64,000 bases of DNA from NCBI GenBank assembly GCA_002498725.1, contig DAIJ01000008.1, positions 5,598-69,597 of the forward strand. The letters run 5' to 3'. The notes beneath the pieces were generated by a model. That model saw only the letters and a list, made by a program, of their open reading frames with translations. It made no database searches and was not told where the DNA came from. Every line of letters begins with the position of its first letter. The stretch's first letter is position 1. The translations under genes were made by a program, and so were the position numbers. Source of the DNA: Euryarchaeota archaeon UBA23 (GTDB lineage: Archaea; Thermoplasmatota; Poseidoniia; Poseidoniales; Thalassarchaeaceae). Below are positions 7,531-61,000 of the stretch, in pieces.

Positions 7531-9813
7531 ATGGCTGATGACCATCTGCGAAAAGATGCTCTGGATTATCATGCTCAGGATCCTCCCGGAAAGATCCGTG
7601 TTGAACCTACAAAACCACATAGTACTGCAAGAGAATTATCTCTAGCATACTCTCCCGGAGTTGCCTATCCATGTAAGGAAATTGAAGAACATCCAAATGA
7701 TGTTTACAAGTATACGTCAAAAGGTAATCTTGTTGCTGTAATAAGCAATGGTACAGCAGTACTAGGACTTGGTGACATCGGTCCTCTTGCAAGTAAGCCT
7801 GTAATGGAAGGAAAAGGGCTACTGTTCAAGGCATTTGCTGATATTGATGTTTTTGATATTGAAATTGATAGAATTGATGTGGATGAATTTGTTGAAGCCG
7901 TCAAGGCTATTTCTCCTACATTTGGTGGAATTAATCTTGAGGATATTAAGGCACCTGAATGCTTTGAAATTGAAAAACGGTTGGTTGCAGAATTAGATAT
8001 CCCAGTAATGCATGATGACCAACATGGTACGGCAATAATATCAGGGGCTGCATTGTTGAATGGCCTTGAATTGGTAGAGAAGGAAATTGATCAAGTTAAA
8101 ATTGTGATTTCTGGAGCAGGAGCTAGTGCTATTTCTTGTGCTAAACATTATCTCAGATTGGGTGTAAAATCAGAAAATATGTTAATGTGTGATTCGAAAG
8201 GAATTCTGACTAATGAAAGACTGAAAGCCGGAGAACTCAACGAATACAAAGCAATATTTGCACAAGATGTGAAAAATGGTGATCTGGCAACTGCAATAAA
8301 GGATGCCGATGTTTTCCTAGGACTCAGTAAAGGAGGAATTGTTTCTAAAGATATGGTAAAATCGATGGCTGAAAGGCCGATGATTTTTGCATTGGCTAAC
8401 CCTGATCCGGAGATAATGCCAGAGGATGTTTTGGAAGTAAGAGATGATGCCATTATAGCAACTGGAAGATCAGATTACCCTAATCAAATAAACAATGTCC
8501 TTGGATTCCCATACATATTCAGAGGTGCTCTTGATGTTAGAGCTACTGAAATTACTGAAAGCATGAAAATGGCGGCTACAAAAGCACTTGCAGAATTAGC
8601 AAAAGAACCTGTGCCTGATGATGTTGCTGCTGCATATGGGGGAGAGCAAATTCAATTTGGACCAGAATACCTGATCCCAAAACCATTCGATGCTCGGGTA
8701 CTAATTTGGGAAGCAAGCGCAGTGGCTCAAGCCGCGGTAAACGAAGGTGTTTCACGCTTATCCACTAATGAATTTGATTACAATGATTACAGAGATAGCC
8801 TCGAAGCACGTTTAGGTCTAACAAGATCAATTATGCGTGATGTGATAAATCGGGCTAAACAAGATCGGAAACGTGTCGTATTCTCAGAGGGAGAAGAGCC
8901 CACTATAATCAAAGCCGCATCAGAGTGTATAGCTGAAGGGATTTGTGACCCGATACTTCTTGGTCATCCAGAAAGAATACAAGCCGTAAAAGAAGAATTG
9001 GGGTTATCATTTGAATGCGAGACTATTGATGTAAGATATGATCCTCGTAGGCGTAGCTCTTATGCTGAAGAATTACTAGTCATGAGAGGAAGAAAGGGAG
9101 TCACTATGCGAGATGCAATAAATATGCTAAAATCTCCTAACTATTTTGGCCCTATGATGGTTCATGTAGGCGATGCTGATGGTTATCTTGGAGGTATAGC
9201 ACACAATTATCCAGATATTGTCAAACCTTGCCTCCAGACAATAGGTCCCGACCCTAATTCACACAGAATAGTAGGTCTGTATATGATGACTGTGAATGGA
9301 CGTTTGATGTTTATAGCGGATGCCACAATCAATATTTATCCCGACCCAAGAACATTGGCTGAAATCGCTGTACAGACGGCGAAAGTAGCAAGGAGATTCG
9401 GAGTTAAACCCAAAGTAGCAATGTTGTCATTCTCTAACTTTGGGACATCTAATGAATTACGAACAGATAGAATAGAGGAGGCGATTGCAATGGCTAGAGA
9501 AATAAATCCAGATATTGTTATCGATGGTCCAATGCAGGCAGATACTGCACTAGTTGACGAAATTCAGGAAGACTATCCATTTATGCAATTCAAAGGGCCT
9601 GCGAATGTACTCGTATGTCCAAATCTTGCGTCTGCAAATATTGCTTACAAACTTCTACAACGAATTGCTGGTGCTGAAATGACTGGCCCTATTCTTGAAG
9701 GATTGGCGAAACCTGCTCACGTTTTACAACGTGGAGATTCAGTCAGACAGGTTGTACACATGGCTGCTATAACTGCTGTAGACGCTCAGAGACATGCTCA
9801 TCAGAGATTGTAA
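7531..9813 (+). CDS. maeB: NADP-dependent malic enzyme, MaeB-type (malic enzyme fused to C-terminal phosphotransacetylase-like domain)
   Basis: About 60% identical by eye to E. coli MaeB over the full length (LAYSPGVA, GNLVAVISNGTAVLGLG, GGINLEDIKAPECF, HDDQHGTAIIS, ALANPDPEI, RSDYPNQINNVL, PTA-like C-terminal half). AGGAGAGG Shine-Dalgarno 5 nt upstream of ATG 7531. The track ORF begins at GTG 7444, which is probably an N-terminal over-extension. Confidence 0.9.
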   Translation: MADDHLRKDALDYHAQDPPGKIRVEPTKPHSTARELSLAYSPGVAYPCKEIEEHPNDVYKYTSKGNLVAVISNGTAVLGLGDIGPLASKPVMEGKGLLFKAFADIDVFDIEIDRIDVDEFVEAVKAISPTFGGINLEDIKAPECFEIEKRLVAELDIPVMHDDQHGTAIISGAALLNGLELVEKEIDQVKIVISGAGASAISCAKHYLRLGVKSENMLMCDSKGILTNERLKAGELNEYKAIFAQDVKNGDLATAIKDADVFLGLSKGGIVSKDMVKSMAERPMIFALANPDPEIMPEDVLEVRDDAIIATGRSDYPNQINNVLGFPYIFRGALDVRATEITESMKMAATKALAELAKEPVPDDVAAAYGGEQIQFGPEYLIPKPFDARVLIWEASAVAQAAVNEGVSRLSTNEFDYNDYRDSLEARLGLTRSIMRDVINRAKQDRKRVVFSEGEEPTIIKAASECIAEGICDPILLGHPERIQAVKEELGLSFECETIDVRYDPRRRSSYAEELLVMRGRKGVTMRDAINMLKSPNYFGPMMVHVGDADGYLGGIAHNYPDIVKPCLQTIGPDPNSHRIVGLYMMTVNGRLMFIADATINIYPDPRTLAEIAVQTAKVARRFGVKPKVAMLSFSNFGTSNELRTDRIEEAIAMAREINPDIVIDGPMQADTALVDEIQEDYPFMQFKGPANVLVCPNLASANIAYKLLQRIAGAEMTGPILEGLAKPAHVLQRGDSVRQVVHMAAITAVDAQRHAHQRL

Positions 9814-9814
9814 T

Positions 9815-11449
9815 TCATTCAATCACTTTTGGTGCGGCAGCTAAAACTGCATCTGAGCAACCTTCTTCATACTGTTCGAAGTTTTCTATGAACATTTGAG
9901 CCAATAAATTCGCCACATTGTCATAGCGAACTGTATCTGTCCAGGTTTCACGAGGCTGTAATATCTCATTTGGTATACCCTCACATTCAACTGGAACTGT
10001 AAAGCCAAATCGTGGGTCTTCTACAAATACCACATCATCAAGATCGCCTCTCAGTGCGGCATTAAGAAGAGTTCTTGTCCAACTAATTTTGATTCTACTG
10101 GACTCACCATATCCACCCGCAATCCATCCTGTATTGATAAGCCAACAATTCGCATTATGTTCACTGATTTTTTTCGACAGAAGATCGGCATAGATACTTG
10201 GATGTCTTGGCATGAATGGAGCACCAAAACAAGTAGAGAATGTTGCCTGAGGTTCAGTAACCCCTATTTCTGTACCTGCAACCTTAGCCGTATAGCCTGA
10301 CATGAAATGATAAGCAGCCTGTTCTGGATTTAATCTAGATAGAGGGGGCAATACACCAAATGCATCACAGGTAAGAAATACTACATTCTTAGGATGGCCA
10401 GCTGTTGAGTCTTCTGTTCTATTCTCTATTGCTTCAATTGGATAAGACCCTCTAGTATTCTGAGTTAAGGTGCCATTATCAAAATCGGGTATTCCTTCTG
10501 CGTCTAGAATTACGTTTTCAAGAATTGTTCCTGGCATCCTAGTTGTTGCAAATATCTCTGGTTCGTCGTCTTTTGAAAGCCCTATCAACTTAGCATAGCA
10601 ACCTCCTTCAAAGTTGAATACCCCGTCAAATGACCAGCCGTGTTCGTCGTCTCCAACCAATGCCCTATTGGGATCAGCAGAAAGAGTTGTCTTACCAGTT
10701 CCAGATAAACCAAAGAATAAGGCGGCATCTTGTCCGTCGGTATTAGCAGAACAATGCATTGGCATTATTCCCTTGGTAGGAAGTATATGATTCATGATTG
10801 TAAATATAGCCTTCTTAATTTCTCCAGCATAATGAGTTCCTCCTATTATTACTAATCCACGATCCAGAGCTAGTATGACAAAAACTTCGGAGTTCACTCC
10901 ATCTACGTTTGGATTAGCACGCAACTCAGGTGCATGAAGGATTGTATACTCTGGAATATGATCCACTAGATCCTGAGAGTCACTGCGAACGAACATATTG
11001 TGATAGAATGCAGCATGCCAAGCCTTCTCAGTAACTAGGCGAACTGGCATAGAATAGTTCGGATCTGCACCGCAATGTGCATCTTTAACGAAAATCTCAT
11101 CTGCATCATTAAGGTGGTTCTGAACTTTCTGTAATAGTCCTTCAAACACATTTCTACTAGTTGATTTGTTTACTGAACCCCACCATACTTGGTCAGCAAG
11201 ACCTGGTTCATCGACAATAAATCGATCATTGGGGGATCTACCTGTGCGTTCTCCTGTGGTTGCTAGTAATACATTATGAGCTGTAAATTGTGCTTCGCCT
11301 CTCTTTACCGCAATATTATGTAATTCATCGGAATTCAAGTTCCAATGAACTATTCCTGCCGGGTCTAATCCATGAGAAGCGAGAGGGGTAGCGAAAACTG
11401 CTGATTCGGACGAGCGGGTGGTGCTCTCCATGATTATTGACGCTACCAT
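9815..11449 (-). CDS. pckA: Phosphoenolpyruvate carboxykinase (ATP)
   Basis: Strong full-length similarity to bacterial ATP-PEPCK: GRSPNDRFIV, kinase-1a GLSGTGKTTLS, GDDEHGWS, NFEGGCYAK, NTGW. True start may be the downstream Met (MESTTR...). Confidence 0.9.
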   Translation of the reverse strand: MVASIIMESTTRSSESAVFATPLASHGLDPAGIVHWNLNSDELHNIAVKRGEAQFTAHNVLLATTGERTGRSPNDRFIVDEPGLADQVWWGSVNKSTSRNVFEGLLQKVQNHLNDADEIFVKDAHCGADPNYSMPVRLVTEKAWHAAFYHNMFVRSDSQDLVDHIPEYTILHAPELRANPNVDGVNSEVFVILALDRGLVIIGGTHYAGEIKKAIFTIMNHILPTKGIMPMHCSANTDGQDAALFFGLSGTGKTTLSADPNRALVGDDEHGWSFDGVFNFEGGCYAKLIGLSKDDEPEIFATTRMPGTILENVILDAEGIPDFDNGTLTQNTRGSYPIEAIENRTEDSTAGHPKNVVFLTCDAFGVLPPLSRLNPEQAAYHFMSGYTAKVAGTEIGVTEPQATFSTCFGAPFMPRHPSIYADLLSKKISEHNANCWLINTGWIAGGYGESSRIKISWTRTLLNAALRGDLDDVVFVEDPRFGFTVPVECEGIPNEILQPRETWTDTVRYDNVANLLAQMFIENFEQYEEGCSDAVLAAAPKVIE

Positions 11450-11576
11450 TCCCCTTTCAACTATTGTGGAGATAAGGGATCATCGAAGGGATGCGATTAT
11501 CGGGAGATGCTTGCCCTGTAAGGACGTGGAGAAAGAAGAGCCAGAGGATCCTGTGATCCGTGCGCGGCGATTTAAG

Positions 11577-14500
11577 ATGGGAGATAATCTAAACCTTGAT
11601 GATTTAGATTTAGATGATTTTGTAAAATCTTCAATACCTTCAGAGAAAGAAAATAAAGATCCTGAAATTGATGAGGCTTTAGGGGATTTATTCGATCCTT
11701 TTGCGAGTCCTAAATCAAGTGATCCGGGGACTATAAGTTTGGATGGAAGTGTACTATCTGCTCCTGAAGGCGACGTGATATCCTCTATGGCTCAGGAAGG
11801 TGAACGGAGGGTTAATTGGGCCATGATGGTGGCTATGATTTTTGTTTTCAGTGCTCTAAGTTTTGTTGCGGGTACTGCTTTTCCACCAATAATATCGATA
11901 ATTCTTCTGATTGCTCTTGCTACAATTGGATTTACTTTTGGAGAACGTTGGGTTCCTAATCAAGAATTACATCTACTCGGAGTGACTTGGGTAATTATTT
12001 CAATGAAAGTACTATATGGTTTAGCAGTTGAATTAAATCATTGGGAACTTGGTAGTTTTTTGCCTATTTCTGTTGAATTACTGGGTATTGTACTTCTCTT
12101 ATTAGTTGCACTAAACGTATTCGTTTCATATAGATATAATCATGATGCAATTGCTGCTCAAGCCACACTGGTTCTGCTTTCAATAGGATCTACTGCTGGA
12201 TCAGTAGGAGGGGAAATTGGTGTTGCAATAATGATTCTAGTTGCAACTTTACTTCTACATGGATTAGCATGGCATAGAAACTCGGGCAATCTTGCAGCAC
12301 TAGGTATTGCAGCATCTAATCTGTGGATTGGAATGCATGCCTTGACAGATGGATTTACAGCGGGTTCTCTCGTAATTGAACCACTAGATACTCCACTCAT
12401 TCTATTCGTATTACTACTTGTTATAACGGCAATAAACGCAGTAATGGCTGCAAAATTTGCACGTGAAGAAAATTGGTTTTCTACTGGTTTTGATGCTGTA
12501 GGACTTGGGAAACCTGGACTTTGGGGGGTGTCAATTTCAATGGGTATGGTTGGCGCCTTACTTACTGTAGCAAGTGGGAGAGAAGACATAGGTTACGCTC
12601 TAGGCATGGTAACATTTCTTGGTGCTTCATTTGGTGGTTCATATCTTGTAGTAAGAGGTGTTGAGGCAAAGCGTGTAATTTTACCTCTTTCAATAGGTGG
12701 AGGGGTGCTTACAACAATTCTTTCTCTTGGTTTTTCCATGGAGCCAATTTTACAATTTGATTCTTATGAAACATTCACTATACTAGCAAGTATACTTACT
12801 GGCTTTGTAATGCTAAGAGATCAACATAGAGTTACTGATAGGGTGCTGTGGGTTGGAGCAATTGCAGTTCTAATCCTATTAGTTGTGTTAATACCTGTAG
12901 AATCAACTGAGAATGGAGGAGATGGTGGAGTAGTACTGCTAGTGCTATTATCAATTCTTCACATAGGTACCGCCTCACTAGCGCTTTTGAGAAAAGCACC
13001 TTCTCTTGCTGGAGTTACAGTTTTACTACCTTGGACTTGGATTGTAATTGAAGAACTTATAGAAGAAACAATTCGTACCATTTTGATAGCTAATGACATA
13101 TTAGATCCTGGTTCAATAATCGAGTTTTCGGCGGAGCCTCTGGCCGTATATCTTGGTATTTCTGCAATATTGATGATGGTAGTTAATCTAAAAATGGGTG
13201 AGAAAGGCATTAACCTTGCATCGGGTTTTCTTGGTATAACAGAAATTTCTGCTTCAATAAGAGATTCTGGGGCCCTTCAACTATGGAGTATGGGGTTATG
13301 GATCCCATTAGTAACTATACTAGTAATGTCTCAATTGGGCGGATTTACCGGGCCAACATTGCTCGCATTGACCTCTCTATTATTCGCATTACATATTGTT
13401 GTTGAATTCCTAGGACGGAGGGTCGGTAGCCCAGTCACGATGCTTGCAACTATGGCTTTATCTGCATCAATATTGAGTTGGAGACATGGATTCAATGAAC
13501 TATGGATGATTATTACCGCATTTTCAGTATTCTCAGTTTTAGCTCGAACAGATACAAGCAAAGAAGCAACCTATACCAACGGAATTGCTCTAGTATCTCT
13601 GCCGATTTTAGTAAGCATCTCATCAAAACAACCAGTAATTATTCTACAAGAGACAGCCTCTGTTCCTAACTTTGACATCTCAATGATTGCGATTATATGT
13701 GCTGGCTTGGTTCTTTCAATATACTTGCCAAAAGCAGAAAAAATGGAAAAGTTATTGAAACCGGCTGCGGCATCTTTGTGGCTACTAATTTTATCAATAG
13801 GCCTCTCCTTACAAGAAGAAGCAGTATCGGCAACCTATCTTGGAATTGGATTCTTCGTGATATCTTCTATTTGGCTTGTTGCGCGTGGAGAAATACGGGC
13901 TGAAATCAAATCAATGACAATACGTGATGCTAGGGTTGATTTAGCACGTAAATCAAAAACACAAGCAGCAACTCTTGGAACTGGACAGATATCTTCCTAT
14001 GATACACGAATAGCAGAAATGCAAGCAACACGCAAAAAGAAAAGAGAACTAAAGGAAACTGAAAATATTGAAGAACTCTACACTACAGATGTAAGCCATA
14101 ATCCACGTATTGTAACAATGATCTTGATGATAGTTCTATTCACTGGAATTGTAAATGGATTCTTGTTTGGGCCTTCACCAGCAGTTATTTTCTTAATTGG
14201 CGCATTTTCTATAATTCTCATATCCATAGCAAGACAACGCACTAGAAGTATGTCTCTTGAGCTCCCAACTATTTTGGGAATTGAATTACCAATTGCAATC
14301 AGTATTGGAGGTATGTTGGGTATTCTTCTTGCAGGGCATCTAAATCCAGGATCTAGTAATCGTGAATTATTCGACTTATTGGTAGTGATAATTCTAATAT
14401 TAATATTCTGCATAATATCAATTTGGAAAAATAAGAACTTACTTGATAGAATACCAATTGCATCTGATTGGTTCGTATTACCATTATCTCTAGGCCTTAT

Positions 14501-15275
14501 CATGGGTGCAATAATGGTAGAATCTCTACCTGCTCCATTTACGATAGACCCTCTCGATGGTGAACTATTAGAGTGGAGTATCCCTTTACTAGTACTTGAG
14601 AGCATTCTCATACTCTTTGTTGGTATTGACTTGTGGATTGGCTCAAAGCGTGATAATGCCGGAAGAGAGACACAGCATAGTAGTTCAGGTAGAGGTTTTC
14701 GTGTTCTATCATATGCAATATTATCTTGGGGTCCAGCAGCAATTACTGCAGTGTTAAATGCTGTTTACCAAGGATACAAGAAAAAACAATCTGAAGCAGT
14801 AGGTATTTCAATTTTAGTTGCACCTATTGCTCTAATCTCTTTATCCAATTTAATACCAGAAATAAGAGATTTTATTCCTGAATTTTGCTACTTACTTGGA
14901 CTTGTAATGATCATAGTAATTGGCTCTTCAATCCCATCAAAAAATGGTCACTGGACAATGATGGCAGTAATTGACTCACACATTCTTATTATTATTGCAA
15001 TAATCACTATCGGAGAGCCTATGCTGATACCTGTTTCATTCTTTGTCTTATCCACAATAATATGGATTGTTGGCATTCTACAGCTTCGGAAAATTTTACG
15101 CATTATAGGACTAATAGATCTAATCCTAGGGGCCGGCCTTACTCTCCTAATATTCGGAAGTTCATCTGACCTAGGAGGTATCGGTCTATTTGCTCTCCTT
15201 GCAGTAATTGGTATTGAATTAGCACTTATCACATGGCTAAGTCAGAGAAATGAAAATGCCTTACTCAAAGATTGA
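11577..15275 (+). CDS. Very large polytopic membrane protein (~1,230 aa, >30 predicted TM helices) with acidic N-terminal region; function unknown
   Basis: Long ORF dominated by hydrophobic helices (ILLIALATIGF, LLLLVALNVF, and so on). N-terminal DNLNLDDLDLDD acidic stretch. Start set at ATG 11577; the track start 11418 would overlap the divergent pckA start. Confidence 0.6.
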   Translation: MGDNLNLDDLDLDDFVKSSIPSEKENKDPEIDEALGDLFDPFASPKSSDPGTISLDGSVLSAPEGDVISSMAQEGERRVNWAMMVAMIFVFSALSFVAGTAFPPIISIILLIALATIGFTFGERWVPNQELHLLGVTWVIISMKVLYGLAVELNHWELGSFLPISVELLGIVLLLLVALNVFVSYRYNHDAIAAQATLVLLSIGSTAGSVGGEIGVAIMILVATLLLHGLAWHRNSGNLAALGIAASNLWIGMHALTDGFTAGSLVIEPLDTPLILFVLLLVITAINAVMAAKFAREENWFSTGFDAVGLGKPGLWGVSISMGMVGALLTVASGREDIGYALGMVTFLGASFGGSYLVVRGVEAKRVILPLSIGGGVLTTILSLGFSMEPILQFDSYETFTILASILTGFVMLRDQHRVTDRVLWVGAIAVLILLVVLIPVESTENGGDGGVVLLVLLSILHIGTASLALLRKAPSLAGVTVLLPWTWIVIEELIEETIRTILIANDILDPGSIIEFSAEPLAVYLGISAILMMVVNLKMGEKGINLASGFLGITEISASIRDSGALQLWSMGLWIPLVTILVMSQLGGFTGPTLLALTSLLFALHIVVEFLGRRVGSPVTMLATMALSASILSWRHGFNELWMIITAFSVFSVLARTDTSKEATYTNGIALVSLPILVSISSKQPVIILQETASVPNFDISMIAIICAGLVLSIYLPKAEKMEKLLKPAAASLWLLILSIGLSLQEEAVSATYLGIGFFVISSIWLVARGEIRAEIKSMTIRDARVDLARKSKTQAATLGTGQISSYDTRIAEMQATRKKKRELKETENIEELYTTDVSHNPRIVTMILMIVLFTGIVNGFLFGPSPAVIFLIGAFSIILISIARQRTRSMSLELPTILGIELPIAISIGGMLGILLAGHLNPGSSNRELFDLLVVIILILIFCIISIWKNKNLLDRIPIASDWFVLPLSLGLIMGAIMVESLPAPFTIDPLDGELLEWSIPLLVLESILILFVGIDLWIGSKRDNAGRETQHSSSGRGFRVLSYAILSWGPAAITAVLNAVYQGYKKKQSEAVGISILVAPIALISLSNLIPEIRDFIPEFCYLLGLVMIIVIGSSIPSKNGHWTMMAVIDSHILIIIAIITIGEPMLIPVSFFVLSTIIWIVGILQLRKILRIIGLIDLILGAGLTLLIFGSSSDLGGIGLFALLAVIGIELALITWLSQRNENALLKD

Positions 15276-29022: not shown

Positions 29023-29613
29023 TTATTCTAACTTAGGGCTCTTATTAGGGCCTACTTCAATTACATGACATTCATGTTCAGTACGAATACCAGCAACAGT
29101 AATTGAGGAGTCGCCTTGAATAGATCTACTACCGCTCCATTTTCTTACCGTGCGTTCTACAGTATGTTTACCGGGAATATTGTTAGGATCTACTTTAAGT
29201 TCAACTTGAGTGTTTTCTAGGGCCCCTAACCAGAGTAATACTGCCTCTATAGCGCGAGTCGCGGCCCCTCTACGCTGTTCTGAAGATCTGATCCAATACC
29301 CTAAATTCCAATCGGCCTCTACGGTTCTTGTTACTGTATCAAATCCAATTAACCCAAGAATTGTGGAATCCCATGGACGTAAGATCACCCAATGATGCAT
29401 ACGTCCAACACGACCCATACGTTCTGCCTCATCTAGAAATTCCTCAATCTGAGTTACGGTATCTTGCTCAGGGAGTATCCATGGCATCGCCCTACTAACC
29501 TCGGGCCAAGTTTCCTCAAATGCCTCAATTAATGGAAGGCTGTGAGTAGTATTTGCTGGCCTCAACACCATGTTTTCGTCGACTTGGATCGTCGTGGTCG
29601 CGCGACGAATCAT
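29023..29613 (-). CDS. GNAT-family N-acetyltransferase (RimJ/RimL-like)
   Basis: Acetyl-CoA-binding motif region NLGYWIRSSEQRRGAATRAIEAVLLW. Immediately upstream of, and co-directional with, aceE. Confidence 0.6.
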   Translation of the reverse strand: MIRRATTTIQVDENMVLRPANTTHSLPLIEAFEETWPEVSRAMPWILPEQDTVTQIEEFLDEAERMGRVGRMHHWVILRPWDSTILGLIGFDTVTRTVEADWNLGYWIRSSEQRRGAATRAIEAVLLWLGALENTQVELKVDPNNIPGKHTVERTVRKWSGSRSIQGDSSITVAGIRTEHECHVIEVGPNKSPKLE

Positions 29614-29678: not shown

Positions 29679-30875
29679 TCAAGGGCGTAACTTTGCTTTC
29701 GCTGACTTAACGTGGGGGTCTTCTGGATATGCCTCTATCGCTTTTTCAATCATCTTATCTACTGCTGATGCCCTGCCTATCCTTTGTAAGAGGGCTCCAA
29801 CCGGATACAGAAGTTTTGTTCGTTCTCCCAAATGAGGACCTACCTCATCAATTAGCACGGTTGCTTGAGCATTCTCTTTGCGTTTTGCCGCCTCCATGGC
29901 ATCTCTTATTTTCATTACTAAATCTCTATCTTGCCATTCCTCTTGCTGAGGCCATGGCCAAAATCCATTATCATCTGAGTTTTCAATTTCTTCTTCCATA
30001 AGATGAGGAAGAGTTGGGGGGCGTGGAATTCTGGGTATGGTTGGAGGCTTTTGGGTATTATTTCCATCAAATGCAGCATCCATTGGATCTACTGGACGAG
30101 CCGCCACTGGAGGAGGAGGGGGGGCAGGCATATCTGCTCTCAATAGAGGAGGAGGGGGTTGCAATGATTCGACTTCTTTACTCTGTTCTAGATTTTCTTC
30201 TGAATTCGGAGGTTCAGATTGCGAATCTTGAACTTGAAGTCTTTCGACTATTTCCGACTTATTTCCTGATGTCGATAAACCTGCTTCTTTTGCCATCTCT
30301 ATCAATTCAGCTTTCTTCAAATTCATTAGATTAGCAGGAGGTTCTTCATTAAACACTTCTTCAAATTCAGAAGATAAAGGAGGGTCTAAAGCTTCCTCTT
30401 CAGATGTGTCATCTACTGAAAATGATTCTATTGGCTCAACTAGAGTTATCTGTTGTTTTGGTATTTCTTCCAATATCTCTTCTTCCTCCTCAGGAATCTC
30501 AAATTTGGTCACAAATGCGGGGGCATCTGCTGCAGTCAATTCGTATTCCTCATCATCCTCTTCACTCGATTCAGGATGATCAACAGTCATAGCAAATGTA
30601 GGATTAATGCTCATTTTGATGCCATCAGATTCATCATATTGTTCAACATCAATAGTTACATCTTCCATCTTGAAGGAGCCCCTTGACCAATCAATCACTT
30701 CTTCTTGATCTTCTTCGTCAGAATCTGCCAGAAGTTGATCGAATAAATCATTAGTTTGGGATTCATCTATAGTTGTAACTTGCTGAAAAGAGGCCTTTCC
30801 TAATTGATACATACATTGAGAGCATTCTGAGGACCCCTCTGGATTATTTGTCCCACATAATGGACATTCAATCAT
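29679..30875 (-). CDS. Zn-ribbon / acidic disordered / SAP-(Rho_N)-like / Pro-rich / C-terminal helical (TPR-like) protein; unknown function
   Basis: N-terminal CPLCG...CSQC zinc ribbon; about 170 aa D/E-rich low-complexity region; SAP-like motif LMNLKKAELIEMAKEAGLSTSGNKSEIVERL; PPPP tracts. Start set at ATG 30875; the track start is 30977. Confidence 0.5.
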   Translation of the reverse strand: MIECPLCGTNNPEGSSECSQCMYQLGKASFQQVTTIDESQTNDLFDQLLADSDEEDQEEVIDWSRGSFKMEDVTIDVEQYDESDGIKMSINPTFAMTVDHPESSEEDDEEYELTAADAPAFVTKFEIPEEEEEILEEIPKQQITLVEPIESFSVDDTSEEEALDPPLSSEFEEVFNEEPPANLMNLKKAELIEMAKEAGLSTSGNKSEIVERLQVQDSQSEPPNSEENLEQSKEVESLQPPPPLLRADMPAPPPPPVAARPVDPMDAAFDGNNTQKPPTIPRIPRPPTLPHLMEEEIENSDDNGFWPWPQQEEWQDRDLVMKIRDAMEAAKRKENAQATVLIDEVGPHLGERTKLLYPVGALLQRIGRASAVDKMIEKAIEAYPEDPHVKSAKAKLRP

Positions 30876-31060
30876 TGACTGCGATTCTTGCTTACGCCAA
30901 TTTTTGAACTTATCAAACACCGTGCTACCACCCACAAAGACGAGGTGCTTCGGCCGCGTTCCGCGTATAACCCTCACCCTAATTTGTAAGCAAAGTGCTC
31001 ATGGAGCAACGTCATGTGTATTTGCAAAGCGTGATGTGTAATTGATTACGGGCAGAAGAC

Positions 31061-32983
31061 ATGGGGACACCAGGAAGTACTCCTTCGAGATTTACTCGGA
31101 GTCAGGATCATCATGATGTTTTCATGCAACTAATTAAGTGGGAATTAGATGATGAATTAAGAGCGACTGAAGAACGATTGAGGAATTGGTCAAGGAAAAA
31201 ATTATCATCTCATGGATTGGCTTTATTTGATCTCCAAGCAAAACCAGACGGTTGGTTGTTTGGTCAAAGAATTGTTAAATTACAGTTAGAAAAACGAGCC
31301 AATTTGGGATCTCATAGATTTCGGCAAGGAGATATAGTAATATTAAGTAGAGGAGATCCAATTGGTGAAAAAACAATTGAAGGAATCGTTTCAGATAGAT
31401 CTCGTAATAGAATAAGAATTGTTCTATCTGAGCTTCCTAGTGGGTTAAGAAGTGGTTTTTGGAGAATGGATAGAGCTGCAAACAAAGTTGCCTTTGATAG
31501 AATGCACGATGCTCTAAATTCAATATTTGATGAAGAGGGAGGCGCACCATTACGTGAACTACTGCTAGGTCTTGTTTATGATCCAATAGCAACAGCCAGC
31601 CTAGGCCCTGAGTTAGGTGGTATGAATCGAAAACCAATGAGTAAATCGGAGGGCCTGAATGAGTCTCAGAAAATCGCTGCAAATGCAGCTACTAACCGTA
31701 GACTTACATTGATACAAGGCCCCCCTGGTACAGGAAAAACATATACTGCTGTTCGTATTTTAGAGTCTTGGGCGAGTCAAGATATCGGTACAATCCTAGC
31801 TGTTGCTGACTCAAATGTTGCTGTTGATAACTTACTCGAAGGTCTACTAGATTTAGGTGTGAGTGCAATAAGACTGGGGCAGCCAGTAAAAGTTAGAGAG
31901 TCTCTGAGAATTGCAACAGTTGACGCACAAATGGAAAATCACCCACTTAGGAGAGACTTAATTGAGCATCTAGAGTTGAATGAAAAACTTGCTCGAAGAA
32001 TACCCGGTATGAAAGGAAAAGAAAAAGGATTAGCGCATAGAGATTTAAACAGAGGATGGAAAGAAGTTCGGCGTATAGAATCACAAATGCGTGATGATAT
32101 ACTAGGTCGTGCTCAGGTTCTATGTTGTACGTGTATAGGTGTTGGACATCATCTGCTAGATGGTCGTAATTTTTCTAGGGTATTAATTGATGAAGCAACT
32201 CAGGCAACTGAACCTGCAAGTCTGGTTCCGCTTGTACGTGGTGCAAGACAAGTGGTTCTAGTAGGCGATCATAGACAATTACCTCCAACTGTAATAAGCC
32301 AACGTGCTGAAAATGGAGGGTTAAGACGATCTTTATTTGAAAGAATAATTGAAATGGGTATTGAACCAATCCTACTAGATACACAGTATAGAATGCATCC
32401 TGAAATCTCAAACTTTCCGAATAAAGCATTCTATGATGGTAATCTTATTGATGGAATTAGTGAAGATGAACGACCCAACCCTGCAGGCTTCCTTTGGAAT
32501 GATTGGGAAATTCCAATCGCGTTTTTGCCTGTTAATGGAGGAGAAATGAGTTCTCCGGATGGTTCATCCAAGGAAAACCTTGCAGAAGCGGGATGGGTTG
32601 CTAGAATTCTTGAGAATCTACTTGAGCCGGGTGATTTACTAGAGACAGATATTGGTATAATTACTCCCTATGCAGGACAGGTAAGAGCTATTCGAGATGC
32701 ATTACCTCAAAAAAGAGAGAGTATTGAAGTAAATACAGTAGATGGTTATCAAGGAAGAGAAAAAGAAGTGATAATATTCTCTTGTGTGAGATCTAATGAC
32801 GAAGGTACGGTTGGTTTTCTCTCTGATCCAAGAAGACTCAATGTGGCACTAACTCGATCAAGGCGTGGCCTCATAGTAATTGGAGACCCTGACACACTGA
32901 GGAATGACCCAGTTTGGTCTGATTGGTTGTCACACATACGCAGTCGTAACCTTGAGGCGTGGCACATTCTCGGGATGGCCTGA
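31061..32983 (+). CDS. Upf1-like SF1B helicase of the IGHMBP2/Smubp-2 (DNA2/NAM7) family
   Basis: N-terminal 1B beta-barrel region (GLALFDL...FGQRIVKL...FRQGDIVIL...GIVSDRSRNRIRIVL). LNESQKIAANAAT. Walker A GPPGTGKTYTAV; Walker B LIDEATQATEP; LVGDHRQLPP; TVDGYQGREKEVIIFSCVRSN. Confidence 0.8.
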   Translation: MGTPGSTPSRFTRSQDHHDVFMQLIKWELDDELRATEERLRNWSRKKLSSHGLALFDLQAKPDGWLFGQRIVKLQLEKRANLGSHRFRQGDIVILSRGDPIGEKTIEGIVSDRSRNRIRIVLSELPSGLRSGFWRMDRAANKVAFDRMHDALNSIFDEEGGAPLRELLLGLVYDPIATASLGPELGGMNRKPMSKSEGLNESQKIAANAATNRRLTLIQGPPGTGKTYTAVRILESWASQDIGTILAVADSNVAVDNLLEGLLDLGVSAIRLGQPVKVRESLRIATVDAQMENHPLRRDLIEHLELNEKLARRIPGMKGKEKGLAHRDLNRGWKEVRRIESQMRDDILGRAQVLCCTCIGVGHHLLDGRNFSRVLIDEATQATEPASLVPLVRGARQVVLVGDHRQLPPTVISQRAENGGLRRSLFERIIEMGIEPILLDTQYRMHPEISNFPNKAFYDGNLIDGISEDERPNPAGFLWNDWEIPIAFLPVNGGEMSSPDGSSKENLAEAGWVARILENLLEPGDLLETDIGIITPYAGQVRAIRDALPQKRESIEVNTVDGYQGREKEVIIFSCVRSNDEGTVGFLSDPRRLNVALTRSRRGLIVIGDPDTLRNDPVWSDWLSHIRSRNLEAWHILGMA

Positions 32984-32991
32984 GAGAGAGT

Positions 32992-33567
32992 ATGTCGGAC
33001 CATGATTCACCTATTTCTGTGCAGTCAGGAGGAACTCTGGCTAAGCAAATAGTTACTGCGGAAGAAGGAGGGCATTGGCCAATACCAGAAGGCACAATTC
33101 TAGCTAGTGGTGTTCAACGTACTGCTGCTCTAAGTGTTGATATTGTAATAGTGACTACAATATTGATGGTTGTTAGTCGTTGGCAAATTCTGAATGCTTG
33201 GAATATTACATTATGGCTTTCTTCAGGATTTCATCATTCACTTGCTATGGTTATGATACTCTTTATTTCTCATTGGCTATATTGGAGATGGACAGGTATG
33301 AAATTTTCCAGATCTTTGGGCCAAAGAATGCTTGGTCTGGCTGTTTTAGCAGAAGATGGTTCTGAGATGACTAGTCAAATGTGGGATCAACGTTCTAGAA
33401 GGAAATTAATCTTCCTTATTCCTGTGATAAATCTTGTTTTTGGGATTAGAGAATTGCTTAGGATATCTAGTAGACATACTCATCAATCAAATATGGATCT
33501 ACACGTTGGTTCAATTGTAGTTCAGGCCAATTCCTTGCCCCCTGCTTCACGCAGGCATATCAAGTGA
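32992..33567 (+). CDS. RDD-family membrane protein
   Basis: Three TM helices with the RDD-family loop motif GMKFSRSLGQRMLGLAVLAEDGSE. Starts 9 nt after the helicase stop. Confidence 0.5.
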   Translation: MSDHDSPISVQSGGTLAKQIVTAEEGGHWPIPEGTILASGVQRTAALSVDIVIVTTILMVVSRWQILNAWNITLWLSSGFHHSLAMVMILFISHWLYWRWTGMKFSRSLGQRMLGLAVLAEDGSEMTSQMWDQRSRRKLIFLIPVINLVFGIRELLRISSRHTHQSNMDLHVGSIVVQANSLPPASRRHIK

Positions 33568-33568
33568 G

Positions 33569-34207
33569 GTGACCAATTTGGAGGAAGCAATTAGAATAGC
33601 TATAGATGGAGATTGTATAGTATATCCAACTACCACTCAGCCGGCTCTAGGATGTATTCCTAACTCCGCCTCTTTAGATAAATTATTTGCCATAAAAAAT
33701 AGACCCTCTAACATGCCTGTAAGTATAGGGGTCGCTAATCTAGAACAGGCATCTAGTATCGTTGAGTTAACTGATGATATTTCTGAATTATTGTCGTCTT
33801 TTCCAGAGGGGGCGATTACTCTTCTACTCCCTGCGAAGACTCTTCTTGATTCACGTTTAGGTGGTAAAAAAATAGCTATCAGAGTAGTTGCTCATCCAAT
33901 TGCAAAGGCATTACTGCAAGCCACCGGACCTCTTACCGCTACTTCTGCAAATATTAGTGGAGAAATACCAGATGAAACTTGTAAAAAAGCCGCTAATAAA
34001 TTAAGAAAAATGGGTTTTAAGATAGGTGTTGTAGACGGAAATACGGCCTCTGGTCCCCCCAGTACTTTGATATCGTGGTATTCGGTCTGTGATGCGCCCG
34101 ATTACCCGAGCATTGAGGTCCTGAGAGAAGGAATTGTACCTACTGAAGAGGTTGAAAAATGGTGGAAGAAGAAGATCTCAAACAGTGGAAAGACGCTGGG
34201 CATGTAG
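33569..34207 (+). CDS. tsaC: L-threonylcarbamoyladenylate synthase, short YrdC/TsaC-type (t6A biosynthesis)
   Basis: YPTTTQPALGC (compare YPTDTVYGLG) and TATSANISGE motifs. Only the 212-aa YrdC domain is present, with no Sua5 C-terminal domain. GTG/TTG start abuts the RDD stop; the 3' end overlaps map. Confidence 0.7.
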   Translation: MTNLEEAIRIAIDGDCIVYPTTTQPALGCIPNSASLDKLFAIKNRPSNMPVSIGVANLEQASSIVELTDDISELLSSFPEGAITLLLPAKTLLDSRLGGKKIAIRVVAHPIAKALLQATGPLTATSANISGEIPDETCKKAANKLRKMGFKIGVVDGNTASGPPSTLISWYSVCDAPDYPSIEVLREGIVPTEEVEKWWKKKISNSGKTLGM

Positions 34208-35172
34208 CCAGAAGAACCCTTGAAGGTATCAAAGGAGAAATAGTGGCTGGTAAGGCGTGGGATGATGTTATTGATTCCGCAGAGAGGTTCATCAGGAGAC
34301 ATGGTGGAACTCCTGCTTTTCCTGTAACAATTTCAGTAAACGACATCGCGGCCCATTATACATCAGAATCAAGATTGCTACCTCCTGATGGATTTGAAGG
34401 AGAAATGATTTTTCAAAACGGAGATCTTGTCAAACTCGATGTTGGAGTACACATTGCAGGAGCTATTGCAGACAATGCAATGACAATAGAGGTAGGCAAT
34501 GGTGGCAATCATACAGAGCAAATAAAAGCAGCAAAGGAGGCAAGAGATGCCTCGATTGAAAAAATGCATCCAGATACCCCCTGGCATGTTGTTGGTGCTG
34601 CTGCTGAACAAGTTCATACTGACGCTGGTTTTGAGCCGATTAGAAATCTATGTGGACATGAATTGAAGAGATGGAATCTACATGCTGGTGTCTCAATACC
34701 AGCATATGCATGTGGACCAGATAATCCTAGTTTCAAAGGAACTGTAGAAACTGGGTCTGTTTATGCTGTTGAACCATTCAACACTACTGGAAAAAGTGGA
34801 ACAGTTGAAAATATACCACCTAGTTCTTCAAGTAACATTTATCGCGTTACTGGAAATATCACTATTCGCAAAGCTATGTCAAAAGGTAAGTTAAAACCTC
34901 TTGGAGCCACTATGGCCAGATACATCGAAGAGCGATATAATACGCTTCCTTTTGCCGAGCGCTGGGCATATCCACTTCTAGAGAAGCCATTCCCGGGAGA
35001 AGAACAAGAAATTCTTCGAAAGAAATGGAATGCTTTGATTAAGAAACTCATTAATATTAGATTCTTAGAAACTTATCAAGCACTTCGTTGCTCTGATAGA
35101 GGAATGATTGGGCAATATGAGCATACTATTTGGATTACCGATGGTGGTGCCGAAGTTTTGACTGTTGAGTAA
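34159..35172 (+). CDS. map: Methionine aminopeptidase, type 2 (archaeal/eukaryal MetAP2)
   Basis: Pita-bread fold motifs DVGVHIAGAIADNAMT, GHELKRWNLHAG, AVEPF, and the type-2 insertion. Confidence 0.85.
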   Translation: MVEEEDLKQWKDAGHVARRTLEGIKGEIVAGKAWDDVIDSAERFIRRHGGTPAFPVTISVNDIAAHYTSESRLLPPDGFEGEMIFQNGDLVKLDVGVHIAGAIADNAMTIEVGNGGNHTEQIKAAKEARDASIEKMHPDTPWHVVGAAAEQVHTDAGFEPIRNLCGHELKRWNLHAGVSIPAYACGPDNPSFKGTVETGSVYAVEPFNTTGKSGTVENIPPSSSSNIYRVTGNITIRKAMSKGKLKPLGATMARYIEERYNTLPFAERWAYPLLEKPFPGEEQEILRKKWNALIKKLINIRFLETYQALRCSDRGMIGQYEHTIWITDGGAEVLTVE

Positions 35173-35400
35173 CTATTTCACTTCTTAACATAATATAGCG
35201 TCTCAGTATAGCGTTTAGGCCTAATGGAGAATTTTTACGCACAACGATTATCTAGCGCTGATTGTAAGGTATGTCCGTACGGGGCCGTTGAGGTTCTCGC
35301 TGAGTGCATCCCATCCCCTCGCTTGTGTCTCTCGCCCTGTACACCTAAATGATTAGACGCTAGGCTTTCAGTGATACATTTTTATGATTATAATATCATA

Positions 35401-36336: not shown

Positions 36337-36669
36337 TCACTCCGAGGCAGCTCTACCATCTGCTATCATTTGCTGGAGTTCACCGGATTGATACATTTCT
36401 AGGGCTATGTCTGATCCGCCAATTAATTCGCCATAGATGTATACCTGAGGCATTGTTGGGAAATCTGCCCAAGCACATACCGAAGGAATCGCCCTAGGAT
36501 CTGTCAGTATATTTACACTAGTAAAAGGCTCTCCTAATTGACTTAACACAGTAGCAGCGCGATTGCTGAATCCGCATCTGGGTTCTTGTGGCGTCCCCTT
36601 CATGAAGAGTACTATAGGGTGTTCGTTTACTAAGGCATCAAGTTCTGAGGGGGTCCAATCAAATGACAT
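36337..36669 (-). CDS. grxD: Monothiol glutaredoxin, Grx4/GrxD family (CGFS active site)
   Basis: PRCGFSNRA active site and a C-terminal GGSD(I) glutathione-binding motif. Start at ATG 36669, 5 nt after the bolA stop; the track ORF is over-extended to 36741. Confidence 0.85.
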   Translation of the reverse strand: MSFDWTPSELDALVNEHPIVLFMKGTPQEPRCGFSNRAATVLSQLGEPFTSVNILTDPRAIPSVCAWADFPTMPQVYIYGELIGGSDIALEMYQSGELQQMIADGRAASE

Positions 36670-36673
36670 TTTA

Positions 36674-37000
36674 TCACTCCTTTTCTGGTCTACGAATGTG
36701 TATTCCAAAGAATTCTGTTTTCTTCTCTGCATGTGGATCAAAAGCTGTGTCTCCTGAGTTTTCTGCTTGTTCCGGAGTCATACATTTCAAATCTAAGGCA
36801 TGAACTATATTCTGGGCGATAAAGGGTTTGAAATGATTCAAGATTGGTCTTTGTCTTTGTAATGGACGCATTCCCTCATAAGAAGAAGAGATTACTCTTA
36901 CATGGAAATGATCACCACTTCCATGTAAGTCAGTAGCCTCGACTCTAGCATCAGGAACCACTTTGAGAATCTCCTCAGACATCCACGCTTCTGTCACCAT
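36674..37000 (-). CDS. bolA: BolA-family protein
   Basis: BolA signature LHGSGDHFHVRVISSSYEGMRPLQRQRPI...IHAL. Confidence 0.8.
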   Translation of the reverse strand: MVTEAWMSEEILKVVPDARVEATDLHGSGDHFHVRVISSSYEGMRPLQRQRPILNHFKPFIAQNIVHALDLKCMTPEQAENSGDTAFDPHAEKKTEFFGIHIRRPEKE

Positions 37001-58064: not shown

Positions 58065-61000
58065 TCACTCACTCGAAGATTCACTTAGTGCAGATTCAGA
58101 TGCTATTATTGCTCTAGCTACTTCAGGTGAATAACCGGTTTCAACTAAATTTTGATAATGCTCATCACGTGAATCATTCTTCTTAACATTAGGAATTATT
58201 GTTTCTGATTTTATCCCCCATATCTCATCTTCTGAGTTGGTCATTGAAGCGATAACTTCGCGAGTATCGTCTCGTACATTCGATCTTCCCCCTACGCGTC
58301 CGCGGGTTTGTAGCGCTGCTCCAACTAATGCTAACAATGAAAGTGCGGCTAAAGATCCCATAAGTATTGGAGAATTGTAAATTGTCTCTATTACACCTCT
58401 TGGGAGTGACTTGTCTTCAACCGAATCCCAGCAACCATCGCCATCTATGTCATTATTCTTACTTGAAGTCCATCCAAGTGCACCATGTGCACATTGATCA
58501 TGAATGTCTGCAACTCCGTCATTATCATCATCTAGATCAAATTCATCCATACAACCATCCGTGTCATGATCAATGGTAATTCGAGGACTTAATGGACACG
58601 CATCATAGACGTCTAGAACGCCGTCGCCATCATCATCTTCATCTTCAGTAGAATCAGCACAACCATCTCTATCTCTATCTGAACTCAGTGTTGAAATCCA
58701 ACCTGGAGTCGGATTTGTTTCGCAGTTATCTTCAGATGTTAGAATTCCGTCGTTATCTAGATCGTAGTCCTCATTTCTATCGTCACAACCATCAAAATCA
58801 CCGTCGACTATTTCTGGAGAAATGCTTCGTGGACATCGGTCTTCTTGATCGAGATATCCGTCGTTGTCATCATCTGAATCTTCACTTATATCGCGGCAGC
58901 CGTCAGAGTCCCAATCTGTTATTGGGCCTGAATCCCATCCAAATTCTCCATTCACACAGAGATCAAAATCGTCCAAAACACCATCATCATCAACATCATT
59001 ATCTTCCTTCAGATCGTTACATCCATCCCCATCCTTGTCAGAAATTAAATTTGAAATCCAGCCAGTCATACCATATGGACAAGAATCTTCACTGTCTTCT
59101 ACACCATCGTTGTCGTCATCGATATCTTCCTTACTATCATGACAGCCATCAAGATCGTGATCAAAGGCTTGTCCTGTCCAGCCAATTTCGCCTGTTGGGC
59201 AATTGTCATCTACATCCAAGTAAGGATCGTTGTCATCATTATCATCTTCATCTGGATCTCTACAGCCATCGTTATCATGATCTTCTGAGAAAGTTTGCCA
59301 ATATTGTGCTCCATTAGGGCATTGGTCGAGATGGTTAAGAACGCCATCGCCATCATTATCTATATCTTCAAAGACATCGTCACATCCGTCGGCGTCGGCA
59401 TCAATTCTATCTAGGTTCATAACTCCTGTAGGACATTCGTCAACATCATCTTCAAAACCATCATTATCGTCATCGATATCTTCTGTTGAATCTTTACAAC
59501 CATCTCCATCATAATCAGTATTTACTCCAGATATCCAATCTGATTCTCCAAATTGACAATTATCTTGATCATCAGGAATTCCATCTTGATCATCATCATT
59601 CCAATCGTTATTATTGATTAGATTGATTTGGATTTGTTGTTCTACCATTGCATAATCATCACTAGTTGATTGAACTTTAACAATTAAATCAAAGGTTTGA
59701 TCCTCATTGATTTGCCTTATATCGGGAGATTGAATAAGAACAAATAACTCCTTAGTGCCACCTTCTACTATTGTAGTAGTTGATTGATAATTACTGTCGA
59801 CTCCAGAATTAATAGTCCATAAATCGGGTTGGCCTTCAGTACTTATTGTAACAATGTCGCTGCTACCTGGGATTTGAATTCCACGTAATACAAGATTTGC
59901 TTCTACTGATTGACCTGGTTCAAGAGTAATTTCTTGAGGTTGAGTAGGAGCTAAATCAAGACGCATATCAAATAAATCCTCATTCCACATACAAACGTCC
60001 CATTTGTTCAACTGACTATCCGGATTTGTACAGTCATTTGCAGTCCAAGCAATTGTACGCTCTGGCCACTCAAACTTGACAATCGGTTGGGCGCTTGCTG
60101 AAAATTCACTACCGAATATTCCCATCAGATTATCTGAACTACTAGTAATAGTACGTGTATTCACAACACTGTAGGCTTGGGTAAGATATCGATTCAGTGG
60201 TAATTCCTCAAAGTCATTCATTACAGGAGATTGTATTCTAGTCCAGCGGAGTTCCACTATCTCTTCATCAGCAGACTCAGCTCCAGACTCAAACCAAGTG
60301 ATGTGTATTGAACCATCTCGATCAAAATCTACACGTGGATTCGCTCCCCAAATCAAATTAGACTGTTGTACTGCAGTGTCCTTTACAACAACTGTAGATT
60401 CTAAGTCTAAACCATCAAATTCTCCATCTAATTCTCCAGCACGTGTTGGGTCTATTTGCATGTAGTGTAACTGACTCGGGCCCGACTTAGATGGGAATTC
60501 GCCCCTTCCATCTACCCAGACAACATGTATATTTCCGTCATCGTCGATGTTAACATCTGGATTCATTGCCCAAGTGTGACCTTGAGTTAGTCTAGTATCG
60601 TTAACTAAAACCAAGTGTCCTATAGTGTCCCAACCTGCACCGTCATCGCGCCAATACCAGTCAGTATCTGGGCCGATGTCCTCTGTGTATTCGCCCGATT
60701 CTGCATCTATTGTGTGACCAGGGTCGCCAATAGTCCAAGTGCTTCTTGGATTAGAAAGTAATGAGTAAGGATTCAGAACTGTAAGGAAGGTATTAGTTGC
60801 TCCACTTCCAGTGGTGATATTGATAATTGCACTAACCATATTGTTCATTTCATCAGTATAGGATGCTATTGGTAGTTGCACATCATCAATCCAAGCTGAG
60901 TCATTCCCATGAGATACTGACCCATCCTTGACATACTTCCATGTGTATGTGTGGTAGCCAGGAGATACTGATGCTGTGTAAGTGCCGTTGCTTTCACCAG

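Follow-up and report, generated by a model that had tools for sequence, protein, structure and literature searches.

A stretch of 64,000 nt from the planktonic archaeon Euryarchaeota archaeon UBA23 (GenBank assembly GCA_002498725.1, contig DAIJ01000008.1, positions 5,598 to 69,597), hereafter called the window, was analysed around a cluster of four open reading frames (ORFs). The host group is Thalassarchaeaceae (Marine Group IIb, MGIIb; order Poseidoniales), and the best-matching proteins bear the names Thalassarchaeaceae or Thalassarchaeum. The four ORFs, all on the plus strand, span positions 31061-35172 and encode a helicase, a membrane protein of the RDD family, TsaC/YrdC, and a type-2 methionine aminopeptidase (MetAP2). 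The comparisons described below suggest that the cluster is probably a housekeeping block of the MGIIb chromosome and not a dedicated system, and that it consists of two conserved gene pairs juxtaposed by inheritance and compaction. A preliminary description of the DNA had presented the genes as four co-directional units with these identities, and this was borne out by the ORFs, by Pfam and NCBIfam matches, and by sequence motifs. The features of the cluster are as follows:

31061..32983, plus strand: stand-alone Upf1/IGHMBP2-like superfamily 1B (SF1B) helicase, 640 aa (Pfam, NCBIfam, Protein Data Bank (PDB) search, AlphaFold2 (AF2) with Foldseek, motifs)
32992..33567, plus strand: small membrane protein of the RDD family, 191 aa (Pfam PF06271, hydropathy, adjacency to the helicase)
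33569..34207, plus strand: single-domain TsaC/YrdC, L-threonylcarbamoyladenylate synthase type, 212 aa (PF01300, signature residues)
34159..35172, plus strand: MetAP2, 337 aa (TIGR00501, ligand patterns)
30978..31060, no strand: divergent intergenic region ahead of the helicase, 83 nt (sequence read)

The sequence gives 8 nt between the helicase and RDD genes instead of the 9 nt stated earlier, while the 1-nt second junction and the overlapping third one agreed with the earlier account. The RDD–TsaC junction measures 1 nt with the GTG start at 33569 and 10 nt with the TTG start at 33578, and TsaC and MetAP2 overlap by 49 nt in the window. A GAGGTGA motif resembling a Shine–Dalgarno (SD) sequence overlaps the RDD stop codon and precedes the TTG at 33578 of TsaC, and the ATG of MetAP2 is preceded at 8 nt by an SD-like GAGGT; no SD-like motif was found ahead of the helicase ATG. 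The junctions are too short for a promoter and the genes run in one direction, which corresponds to operon spacing. The 83-nt divergent region presumably contains the promoters of both the helicase unit and the upstream minus-strand genes. Scanning the sequence for sigma-70 promoters and intrinsic terminators, a type of scan unsuited to archaea, returned counts no higher than those of shuffled sequence. A third of the same-strand junctions in the window (9 of 27, by crude ORF calls) measure 10 nt or less, and convergent genes are spaced by 1-5 nt. Close spacing is the norm in this compact genome and holds little functional information by itself, and the tightness of the cluster exceeds chance expectation only weakly. 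The composition of the window is uniform.

A scan of one genome per species yielded 28 loci, all from Poseidoniales, with helicase identities of 64-84%. The tight four-gene layout was present in 28 MGIIb loci, namely 24 from the species scan together with L034, retrieved by protein look-up, and L036, L037, and L039, retrieved by a metagenome scan. The surroundings of the MGIIb loci are also syntenic, both upstream (2-oxoacid dehydrogenase E1, a GNAT acetyltransferase, and a zinc-ribbon/SAP protein) and downstream (EamA, glutaredoxin (Grx), BolA, ribulose-phosphate epimerase (Rpe), and thioredoxin (Trx)). Because the entire neighbourhood is conserved at such a distance, the four-gene order within MGIIb says nothing specific about these four genes. 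A different organization was found in the MGIIa loci L031, L032, and L116 and in the divergent MGIIb locus L023, where the helicase–RDD pair is followed by a spacer of 77-120 nt and then by the tight or overlapping series X-Y-TsaC-MetAP2. The X product measures 328-507 aa and combines an acidic N-domain with a Pro-rich tail; Y encodes a protein of 90-98 aa with a faint match to the TATA-binding protein (TBP) fold, overlaps or abuts the TsaC start, and may be functionally tied to TsaC. Both genes lie between RDD and TsaC at the following positions:

L023: X at 8566-10089, Y at 10139-10417
L032: X at 5124-6110, Y at 6120-6395
L031: X at about 9812-10570, Y at about 10966-11262
L116: X at 9708-10739, Y at 10776-11048

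Loci L029 and L030 have a minus-strand pilin-like gene after RDD and X after that gene, and in L038 the helicase is followed by a convergent gene and RDD is absent. Neither X nor Y had a tblastn match in the 64-kb window. The adjacency of helicase and RDD was observed in 38 of the 39 evaluable Poseidoniales loci, L038 being the exception, and the overlap of TsaC and MetAP2 (22-49 nt) was kept in every Poseidoniales locus that reaches it. By parsimony, the four-gene unit is derived, with two older pairs, helicase with RDD and TsaC with MetAP2, fused by loss of X, Y, and the spacer; the loss is assigned to the window lineage because the X-Y layout occurs in MGIIa and in the divergent MGIIb locus. 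When gene order across Poseidoniales was checked, as had been proposed, the order within each pair turned out to be kept across the order, whereas the junction between the pairs was not. Outside Poseidoniales, 75 loci were considered (73 of 80 metagenome-scan loci, plus L033 and L115), and neither RDD nor TsaC was found near the helicase in any of them (0/75). The neighbours of the prokaryotic helicase relatives were mixed and included NTPase_1, a TtuA-like protein, a STAND ATPase, GNAT, Memo, and a DNA glycosylase. One of these 75 loci (L078) has an M24 peptidase gene (3557-4423, plus strand) directly ahead of its distantly related helicase, which is probably a coincidence.

Regarding the helicase, the Pfam search returned AAA_11 (172 bits), AAA_12 (214 bits), and the 1B domain SMUBP-2_HCS1_1B (PF21138; 37.8 bits against a cutoff of 27), and the protein marginally passed the NCBIfam model TIGR00376, "IGHMBP2 family helicase", with 394.9 bits against a cutoff of 348.9. 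The SF1B motifs I, Ia, II, III, IV, V, and VI all occur in order, with GPPGTGKT at residue 220, SNVAVDN at 251, DEATQ at 377, and GDHRQLPP at 402, followed in the C-terminal half by QYRM at 442, TVDGYQGRE at 559, and RRLNVALTR at 591. The AF2 model (predicted local distance difference test, pLDDT, 88.3; predicted template modelling score, pTM, 0.86) contains a helix at residues 14-42 and then strands at 54-138, forming the stalk and the 1B beta-barrel, and the architecture is that of an N-terminal stalk and 1B beta-barrel with RecA domains 1A and 2A. In Foldseek, the model superposed full length on the Upf1 and IGHMBP2 cores (636-646 columns, TM 0.77-0.85). A PDB sequence search matched Upf1 with 314 bits (residues 134-629), IGHMBP2 with 232 bits (residues 23-617), and Dna2 with 176 bits. 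The CH domain is not present, since the protein begins with the stalk and 1B and its alignment to Upf1 starts only at residue 134. Neither R3H nor zf-AN1 was matched in the Pfam scan, the protein ending at residue 640 with the 2A domain, and no fused nuclease or other extra domain was found in the Pfam and NCBIfam scans. The protein amounts to a stand-alone SF1B motor of Upf1/IGHMBP2-like type, complete and with its 1B barrel, and the earlier reading of a 640-aa helicase with the full set of Upf1-family motifs and an IGHMBP2-like barrel is upheld by the motifs, by PF21138, and by the AF2 and Foldseek results.

The affiliation of this helicase was examined by searching 1.8 billion cluster representatives. 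One further Poseidoniales cluster was recovered at 54% identity; the next matches, at 39-47% identity over the full length including 1B and 450-510 bits, were mainly long proteins, and the named relatives outside Poseidoniales were all eukaryotic (Thecamoeba, Planoprotostelium, Riccia, Pleodorina, Bryopsis, Percolomonas, and a dinoflagellate). This agrees with the statement that Upf1-like helicases are sporadic in archaea. One unlabelled match, P0128, lies on a contig that also carries Dor1 and a kinase/phosphatase gene, which makes the contig eukaryotic. A profile search started from distant representatives was swamped by Poseidoniales sequences, and only P0142 was usable as a relative from outside the order. 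The canonical prokaryotic members of TIGR00376 (L045, L053, L059, L094, and L066) scored 699-800 bits on that model in one stretch, whereas the window helicase and all its Poseidoniales orthologues scored 388-395 bits in two stretches; together, the Poseidoniales helicases, P0142, and the eukaryotic proteins fell at 377-395 bits. Likewise, the window helicase shares 31-36% identity with the canonical members, as against 39-47% with the eukaryotic proteins, and the canonical helicases match IGHMBP2 better (283 bits) than they match Upf1 (200-213 bits).

In a neighbour-joining (NJ) tree with 200 bootstraps, a simple method applied with the Upf1 and IGHMBP2 sequences left out, Poseidoniales were monophyletic with 99.5% support and the canonical TIGR00376 group received 98.5%. 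The Poseidoniales, the eukaryotes, and four unlabelled sequences, P0128 among them, formed one clade with 100% bootstrap, here called clade B, the branching inside which was not resolved by NJ. An earlier NJ tree of 78 taxa had been star-like, and the clear split appeared only after the canonical TIGR00376 sequences were added; a BLAST matrix agrees with this split. The phylogenetic check suggested beforehand thus came out with no grouping of the helicase with ordinary archaeal or bacterial members of the family, in either the NJ tree or the BLAST matrix. Because of the TIGR00376 scores, the identities, and the NJ split from canonical members, the helicase is placed by sequence apart from the canonical prokaryotic IGHMBP2 family and in an uncharacterised, eukaryote-rich, Upf1-like clade. 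It is not a Upf1 orthologue, because clade-B proteins match one another at 450-500 bits and Upf1 at about 300. The eukaryotic clade-B proteins score about 300 bits against Upf1 and about 220 bits against IGHMBP2, the same as the window helicase, and by these scores they are not orthologues of Upf1 or IGHMBP2 either. A gene exchange between eukaryotes and archaea is possible for this helicase. For characterised archaeal Upf1-like helicases, the literature search turned up the family census of Chamieh et al. (PMC5349461) but no functional work. Two database labels concern relatives of this helicase: the closest helicase, P0001 (91% identity), is labelled "Actinobacteria bacterium" in NCBI and probably comes from a mis-binned Marine Group II (MGII) contig, and a 71%-identical helicase fragment in L028 lies on a contig binned as Nitrospina, also probably mis-binned MGII.

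The RDD protein matched Pfam RDD (PF06271) with 37.1 bits against a cutoff of 24.1 and has three hydrophobic segments by hydropathy, at about residues 40-67, 74-92, and 138-159. In the third protein, PF01300 was the sole Pfam match (111.6 bits), and the SUA5 domain was not found in the Pfam scan. Its signature tetrad is present as K43-N-R45 and T125-S126-A-N128, that is, KxR and SxN with a Thr ahead of SxN, and a Thr in this position marks TsaC and not Sua5 (PMC10321239). The best equivalog families, TIGR00057 (109.5 bits, cutoff 123.2) and NF007919 (66.5 bits, cutoff 175), were matched below their cutoffs, and on score alone the protein could be a YciO-like paralogue instead of TsaC. The single-domain form reported for this YrdC stood, but it is not unusual for archaea as had been thought: both TsaC and Sua5 have a patchy distribution across the three domains, and TsaC predominates in some whole archaeal groups (PMC10321239). 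The fourth protein matched the type II model TIGR00501 over its full length with 209.4 bits as its best family (cutoff 222.65; type I, 92 bits), and the five metal ligands D94, D105, H167, E205, and E321 were assigned by pattern, not by structure.

The 228-nt gap 3' of MetAP2 holds a near-invariant sequence, although the proteins of the same loci are just 45-80% identical. Its parts in the window and its copies elsewhere are as follows:

35240..35254, plus strand: motif CACAACGATTATCTA, about 25-30 nt upstream of the hairpin base
35277..35345, plus strand: 66-nt hairpin (35277-35342) with an invariant ACC, to 35345 (alignment, covariation)
35240-35350, plus strand: the conserved non-coding element in the window; copies at 12682-12790 in L116, 12937-13043 in L031, 8065-8164 in L032, and 12081-12186 in L023

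The motif CACAACGATTATCTA is nearly invariant in 31 aligned sequences, and the next 22 nt vary freely. It may represent a B recognition element (BRE)/TATA promoter of a small RNA, because its distance from the hairpin fits a transcription start at the hairpin base. The hairpin carries an invariant apical loop of 13 nt, UGCAUCCCAUCCC, and was found in all 32 sources with sequence past MetAP2 (31 loci and the window), the three MGIIa loci included. According to nhmmer, there is one copy per locus, on the plus strand only, 49-110 nt past the MetAP2 stop, and the hairpin is single-copy within the window. In a sequence-based alignment, pairing was found in 95.9% of cells, compared with 36-61% when the partners were slid. 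Six pairs changed on both sides, a number reached by 0 of 500 shuffles; the compensatory changes lie in the basal stem, such as the second pair, which goes from U-A to A-U in MGIIa, and since these double changes stem from few sequences they support covariation only modestly. Only the plus strand accommodates the G-U pairs.

The hairpin had no Rfam match even at E<=10, and the entire window gave no match to Rfam at gathering thresholds or to ARAGORN. A tRNA was rejected after ARAGORN returned nothing in standard or intron modes; its mitochondrial mode called "Gly(ccc)" on the hairpin, one of four calls in 270 nt, which was treated as noise. A viral att site was discarded with no exact match in IMG/VR, and an outer helix around the hairpin is not claimed, its own flanks folding at -14.3 and mixed flanks at -13.0 kcal/mol. 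The hairpin is regarded as a candidate for a new small RNA that is structured and apparently transcribed on its own.

The genes on the far side of the divergent region, and other large ORFs of the window, are as follows:

29679..30977, minus strand: acidic Pro-rich protein; Cys4 (CxxC...CxxC) motif of zinc-ribbon-like type at the N-terminus, SAP domain (Pfam, 33.6 bits), and conserved domain at the C-terminus
29023..29613, minus strand: GNAT acetyltransferase (Acetyltransf_3, RimJ/RimL-like; Pfam, 47.8 bits)
36337-37000, minus strand: monothiol glutaredoxin and BolA, overlapping by about 59 nt (crude starts)
3 to about 7350, minus strand: G-, S-, D-, and T-rich ORF longer than 2,450 aa that runs off the window start, probably a giant surface protein
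11430-15275, plus strand, and 58065-62957, minus strand: proteins of 1281 and 1630 aa, respectively, with no Pfam domain at E<=1e-5

In every Poseidoniales locus, the helicase is preceded by the N- and C-terminal parts of the SAP protein, and the MGIIa versions had no Pfam match, so that SAP went undetected in them. The GNAT gene likewise precedes the helicase in MGIIb, in MGIIa, and in the P0121 clade. The remaining flanking genes of the cluster carry housekeeping Pfam domains, and the wider window encodes 2-oxoacid dehydrogenase E1, Grx-BolA, ribulose-phosphate epimerase, leucyl-tRNA synthetase (LeuRS), and PolD, which belong to central metabolism and housekeeping. Glutaredoxin and BolA are a known functional pair, and the two genes are kept together in all MGIIb loci. 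No nuclease or defence domain was found in the five proteins scanned, namely those of the four cluster genes and the SAP protein.

Taken as a whole, the cluster is best explained as a housekeeping block formed from two conserved pairs, an explanation to which we assign a probability of about 0.6. The ancestral Poseidoniales order would have been helicase-RDD, a 77-120-nt spacer, and X-Y-TsaC-MetAP2, from which the window lineage would have deleted X, Y, and the spacer. Because TsaC now abuts RDD, the spacing suggests that all four genes are most likely read as one transcript from the helicase promoter, with the internal genes presumably started at their SD-like motifs. By homology, the helicase is predicted to hydrolyse ATP and to move 5'->3' on single-stranded nucleic acid, the 1B barrel and the stalk clamping the strand. 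Its substrate would more likely be RNA or a ribonucleoprotein, a speculative preference since the core is closest to Upf1, and the near-constant pairing with RDD suggests, again speculatively, that the helicase may act at the membrane or be regulated from it. TsaC would make threonylcarbamoyl-AMP for the t6A37 modification of tRNA, and MetAP2 would remove the initiator methionine, as expected from their homologues. There is no comparative evidence for TsaC or MetAP2 working with the helicase.

Some observations weigh against this account. The order helicase-RDD-(X-Y)-TsaC-MetAP2 is common to both Poseidoniales families though their outer flanks differ, E1 in one and pyruvate:ferredoxin oxidoreductase (PFOR) in the other upstream, and EamA as against pilin and glycosyltransferases downstream; some selection holding the entire block together is possible. 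In addition, human IGHMBP2 has been reported to associate with tRNA and ribosomes, and a link to translation is not absurd.

The preliminary description had proposed a joint role of the four genes, with the helicase operating together with TsaC and MetAP2 in RNA or translation quality control. Besides the shared order across both families, the proposal finds some support in the tight junctions with SD-like motifs of the window lineage, in a helicase core nearest to the RNA helicase Upf1, and in a hairpin RNA, directly 3' of MetAP2, whose base resembles an acceptor stem and whose tail is ACC. However, the coupling is derived, with two unrelated genes and the spacer standing between the pairs in MGIIa and L023 and an opposite-strand gene following RDD in L029 and L030, and the genome is compact throughout. 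Moreover, TsaC occurs at 0 of the 75 helicase loci outside the order, where a single M24 peptidase upstream (L078) is all that resembles the arrangement, the helicase has no CH domain, and Upf2 and Upf3, the partners in nonsense-mediated decay, are not known from archaea. The argument from coupling to a shared role does not hold against a derived layout, a syntenic neighbourhood throughout MGIIb, and the 0/75 outside loci, and we consider a quality-control module doubtful.

Alternatively, the helicase could be a DNA enzyme of replication or repair, comparable to yeast Hcs1 or the helicase domain of Dna2, in a cluster unrelated to RNA. Upf1-like helicases, including IGHMBP2, unwind both DNA and RNA, which counts for this possibility, as do the Dna2 match, the SAP domain of the divergent neighbour, a DNA-binding motif, and the position of P0142 (L033), the sole prokaryote-like relative outside Poseidoniales with context, next to a 3-methyladenine DNA glycosylase gene. 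The top sequence matches, though, are the RNA helicases Upf1 and Nam7, the repair link comes from a single context, the MGIIa versions of the neighbour are without SAP, and no replication or repair gene consistently adjoins the helicase. A DNA role of this kind is unlikely in our view.

A bolder variant would treat the order-wide block, hairpin included, as one RNA-handling module specific to MGII, built on a domain-crossing, eukaryote-type Upf1-like helicase that RDD tethers or regulates at the membrane and with which, or on which, the hairpin acts; we hold this to be improbable. Finally, an anti-phage defence module of Mokosh-like, Nhi-like, or other helicase-based type is hardly credible: PADLOC matched MkoA at 308 bits and, more weakly, the PLuB, ProA, and Hhe helicase models, but the MkoA match is limited to the helicase core (profile positions 532-1081 of 1112), PLuB and ProA scored 213 against a cutoff of 999 and 63 against 1500, there is no phospholipase D (PLD) or other nuclease, N-terminal MkoA region, or partner gene, and the helicase keeps a fixed syntenic position among housekeeping genes in every Poseidoniales locus, in a window of uniform composition. 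The earlier argument against an Nhi-like system, from the missing fused nuclease, agrees with the Pfam and PADLOC scans.

On the housekeeping-block explanation, the operon as such changes nothing known: TsaC and MetAP2 occur universally as housekeeping enzymes, and gene loss in a compact genome accounts for their proximity to the helicase. The features of note are the affiliation of the helicase, its RDD partner, and the downstream hairpin RNA without an Rfam family. These abundant planktonic archaea carry a Upf1-family helicase with eukaryotic nearest relatives in every locus examined, in both families, with the RDD protein as its near-constant follower. The helicase may provide a case of gene exchange between eukaryotes and archaea, and it offers a simple prokaryotic model of the Upf1/IGHMBP2 motor without the eukaryotic accessory domains. 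For the hairpin, the invariance of its 13-nt loop throughout the order suggests a conserved binding partner.

When compared to known systems, the likeness to Mokosh MkoA is confined to the C-terminal half of the profile, while the MkoA N-terminal region, MkoB, and the PLD nuclease are missing in the window. E. coli YrdC (TsaC) resembles the window protein in consisting of a single PF01300 domain, and Sua5 differs from both by its SUA5 domain. The model of archaeal type-2 aminopeptidases, TIGR00501, comprises 295 positions, and the window MetAP2 is about 40 aa longer. Tan1 is an abundant 229-nt non-coding RNA of the MGII "Thalassoarchaea" (PMC5069720). It comes from the same organism group as the hairpin, and both are structured RNAs without an Rfam family; at 229 nt, as against a conserved hairpin core of about 70-110 nt, and compared by description and not by sequence, Tan1 may or may not be related to it.

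With respect to the helicase, the eukaryotic clade-B proteins are uncharacterised and differ from the window helicase by N-terminal extensions of 70-300 aa and by the lack of an RDD neighbour. The canonical prokaryotic IGHMBP2-family helicases share its length of about 640 aa and its domain order, but they are nearer to IGHMBP2 (283 bits) than it is (232 bits). The Upf1/Nam7 core (PDB 2GJK, 2XZO, 8RD3) is its top PDB sequence match (32% identity over residues 134-629) and superposes on it over the full length with TM 0.77-0.83, the two having in common the SF1B motifs, the stalk, and the 1B barrel; in contrast, the N-terminal 130 residues of the window helicase cannot be aligned to Upf1 by sequence, and the CH zinc-knuckle domain and SQ tail of Upf1 are both missing from it. 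IGHMBP2/SMUBP-2 (PDB 4B3F, 4B3G) reaches merely 232 bits and 30% identity and has the R3H domain and AN1 zinc finger that the window helicase lacks, but its sequence alignment covers residues 23-617, including 1B, and 4B3G is the best geometric fit of the helicase model (TMq 0.82, TMt 0.85, root-mean-square deviation 3.5 A).

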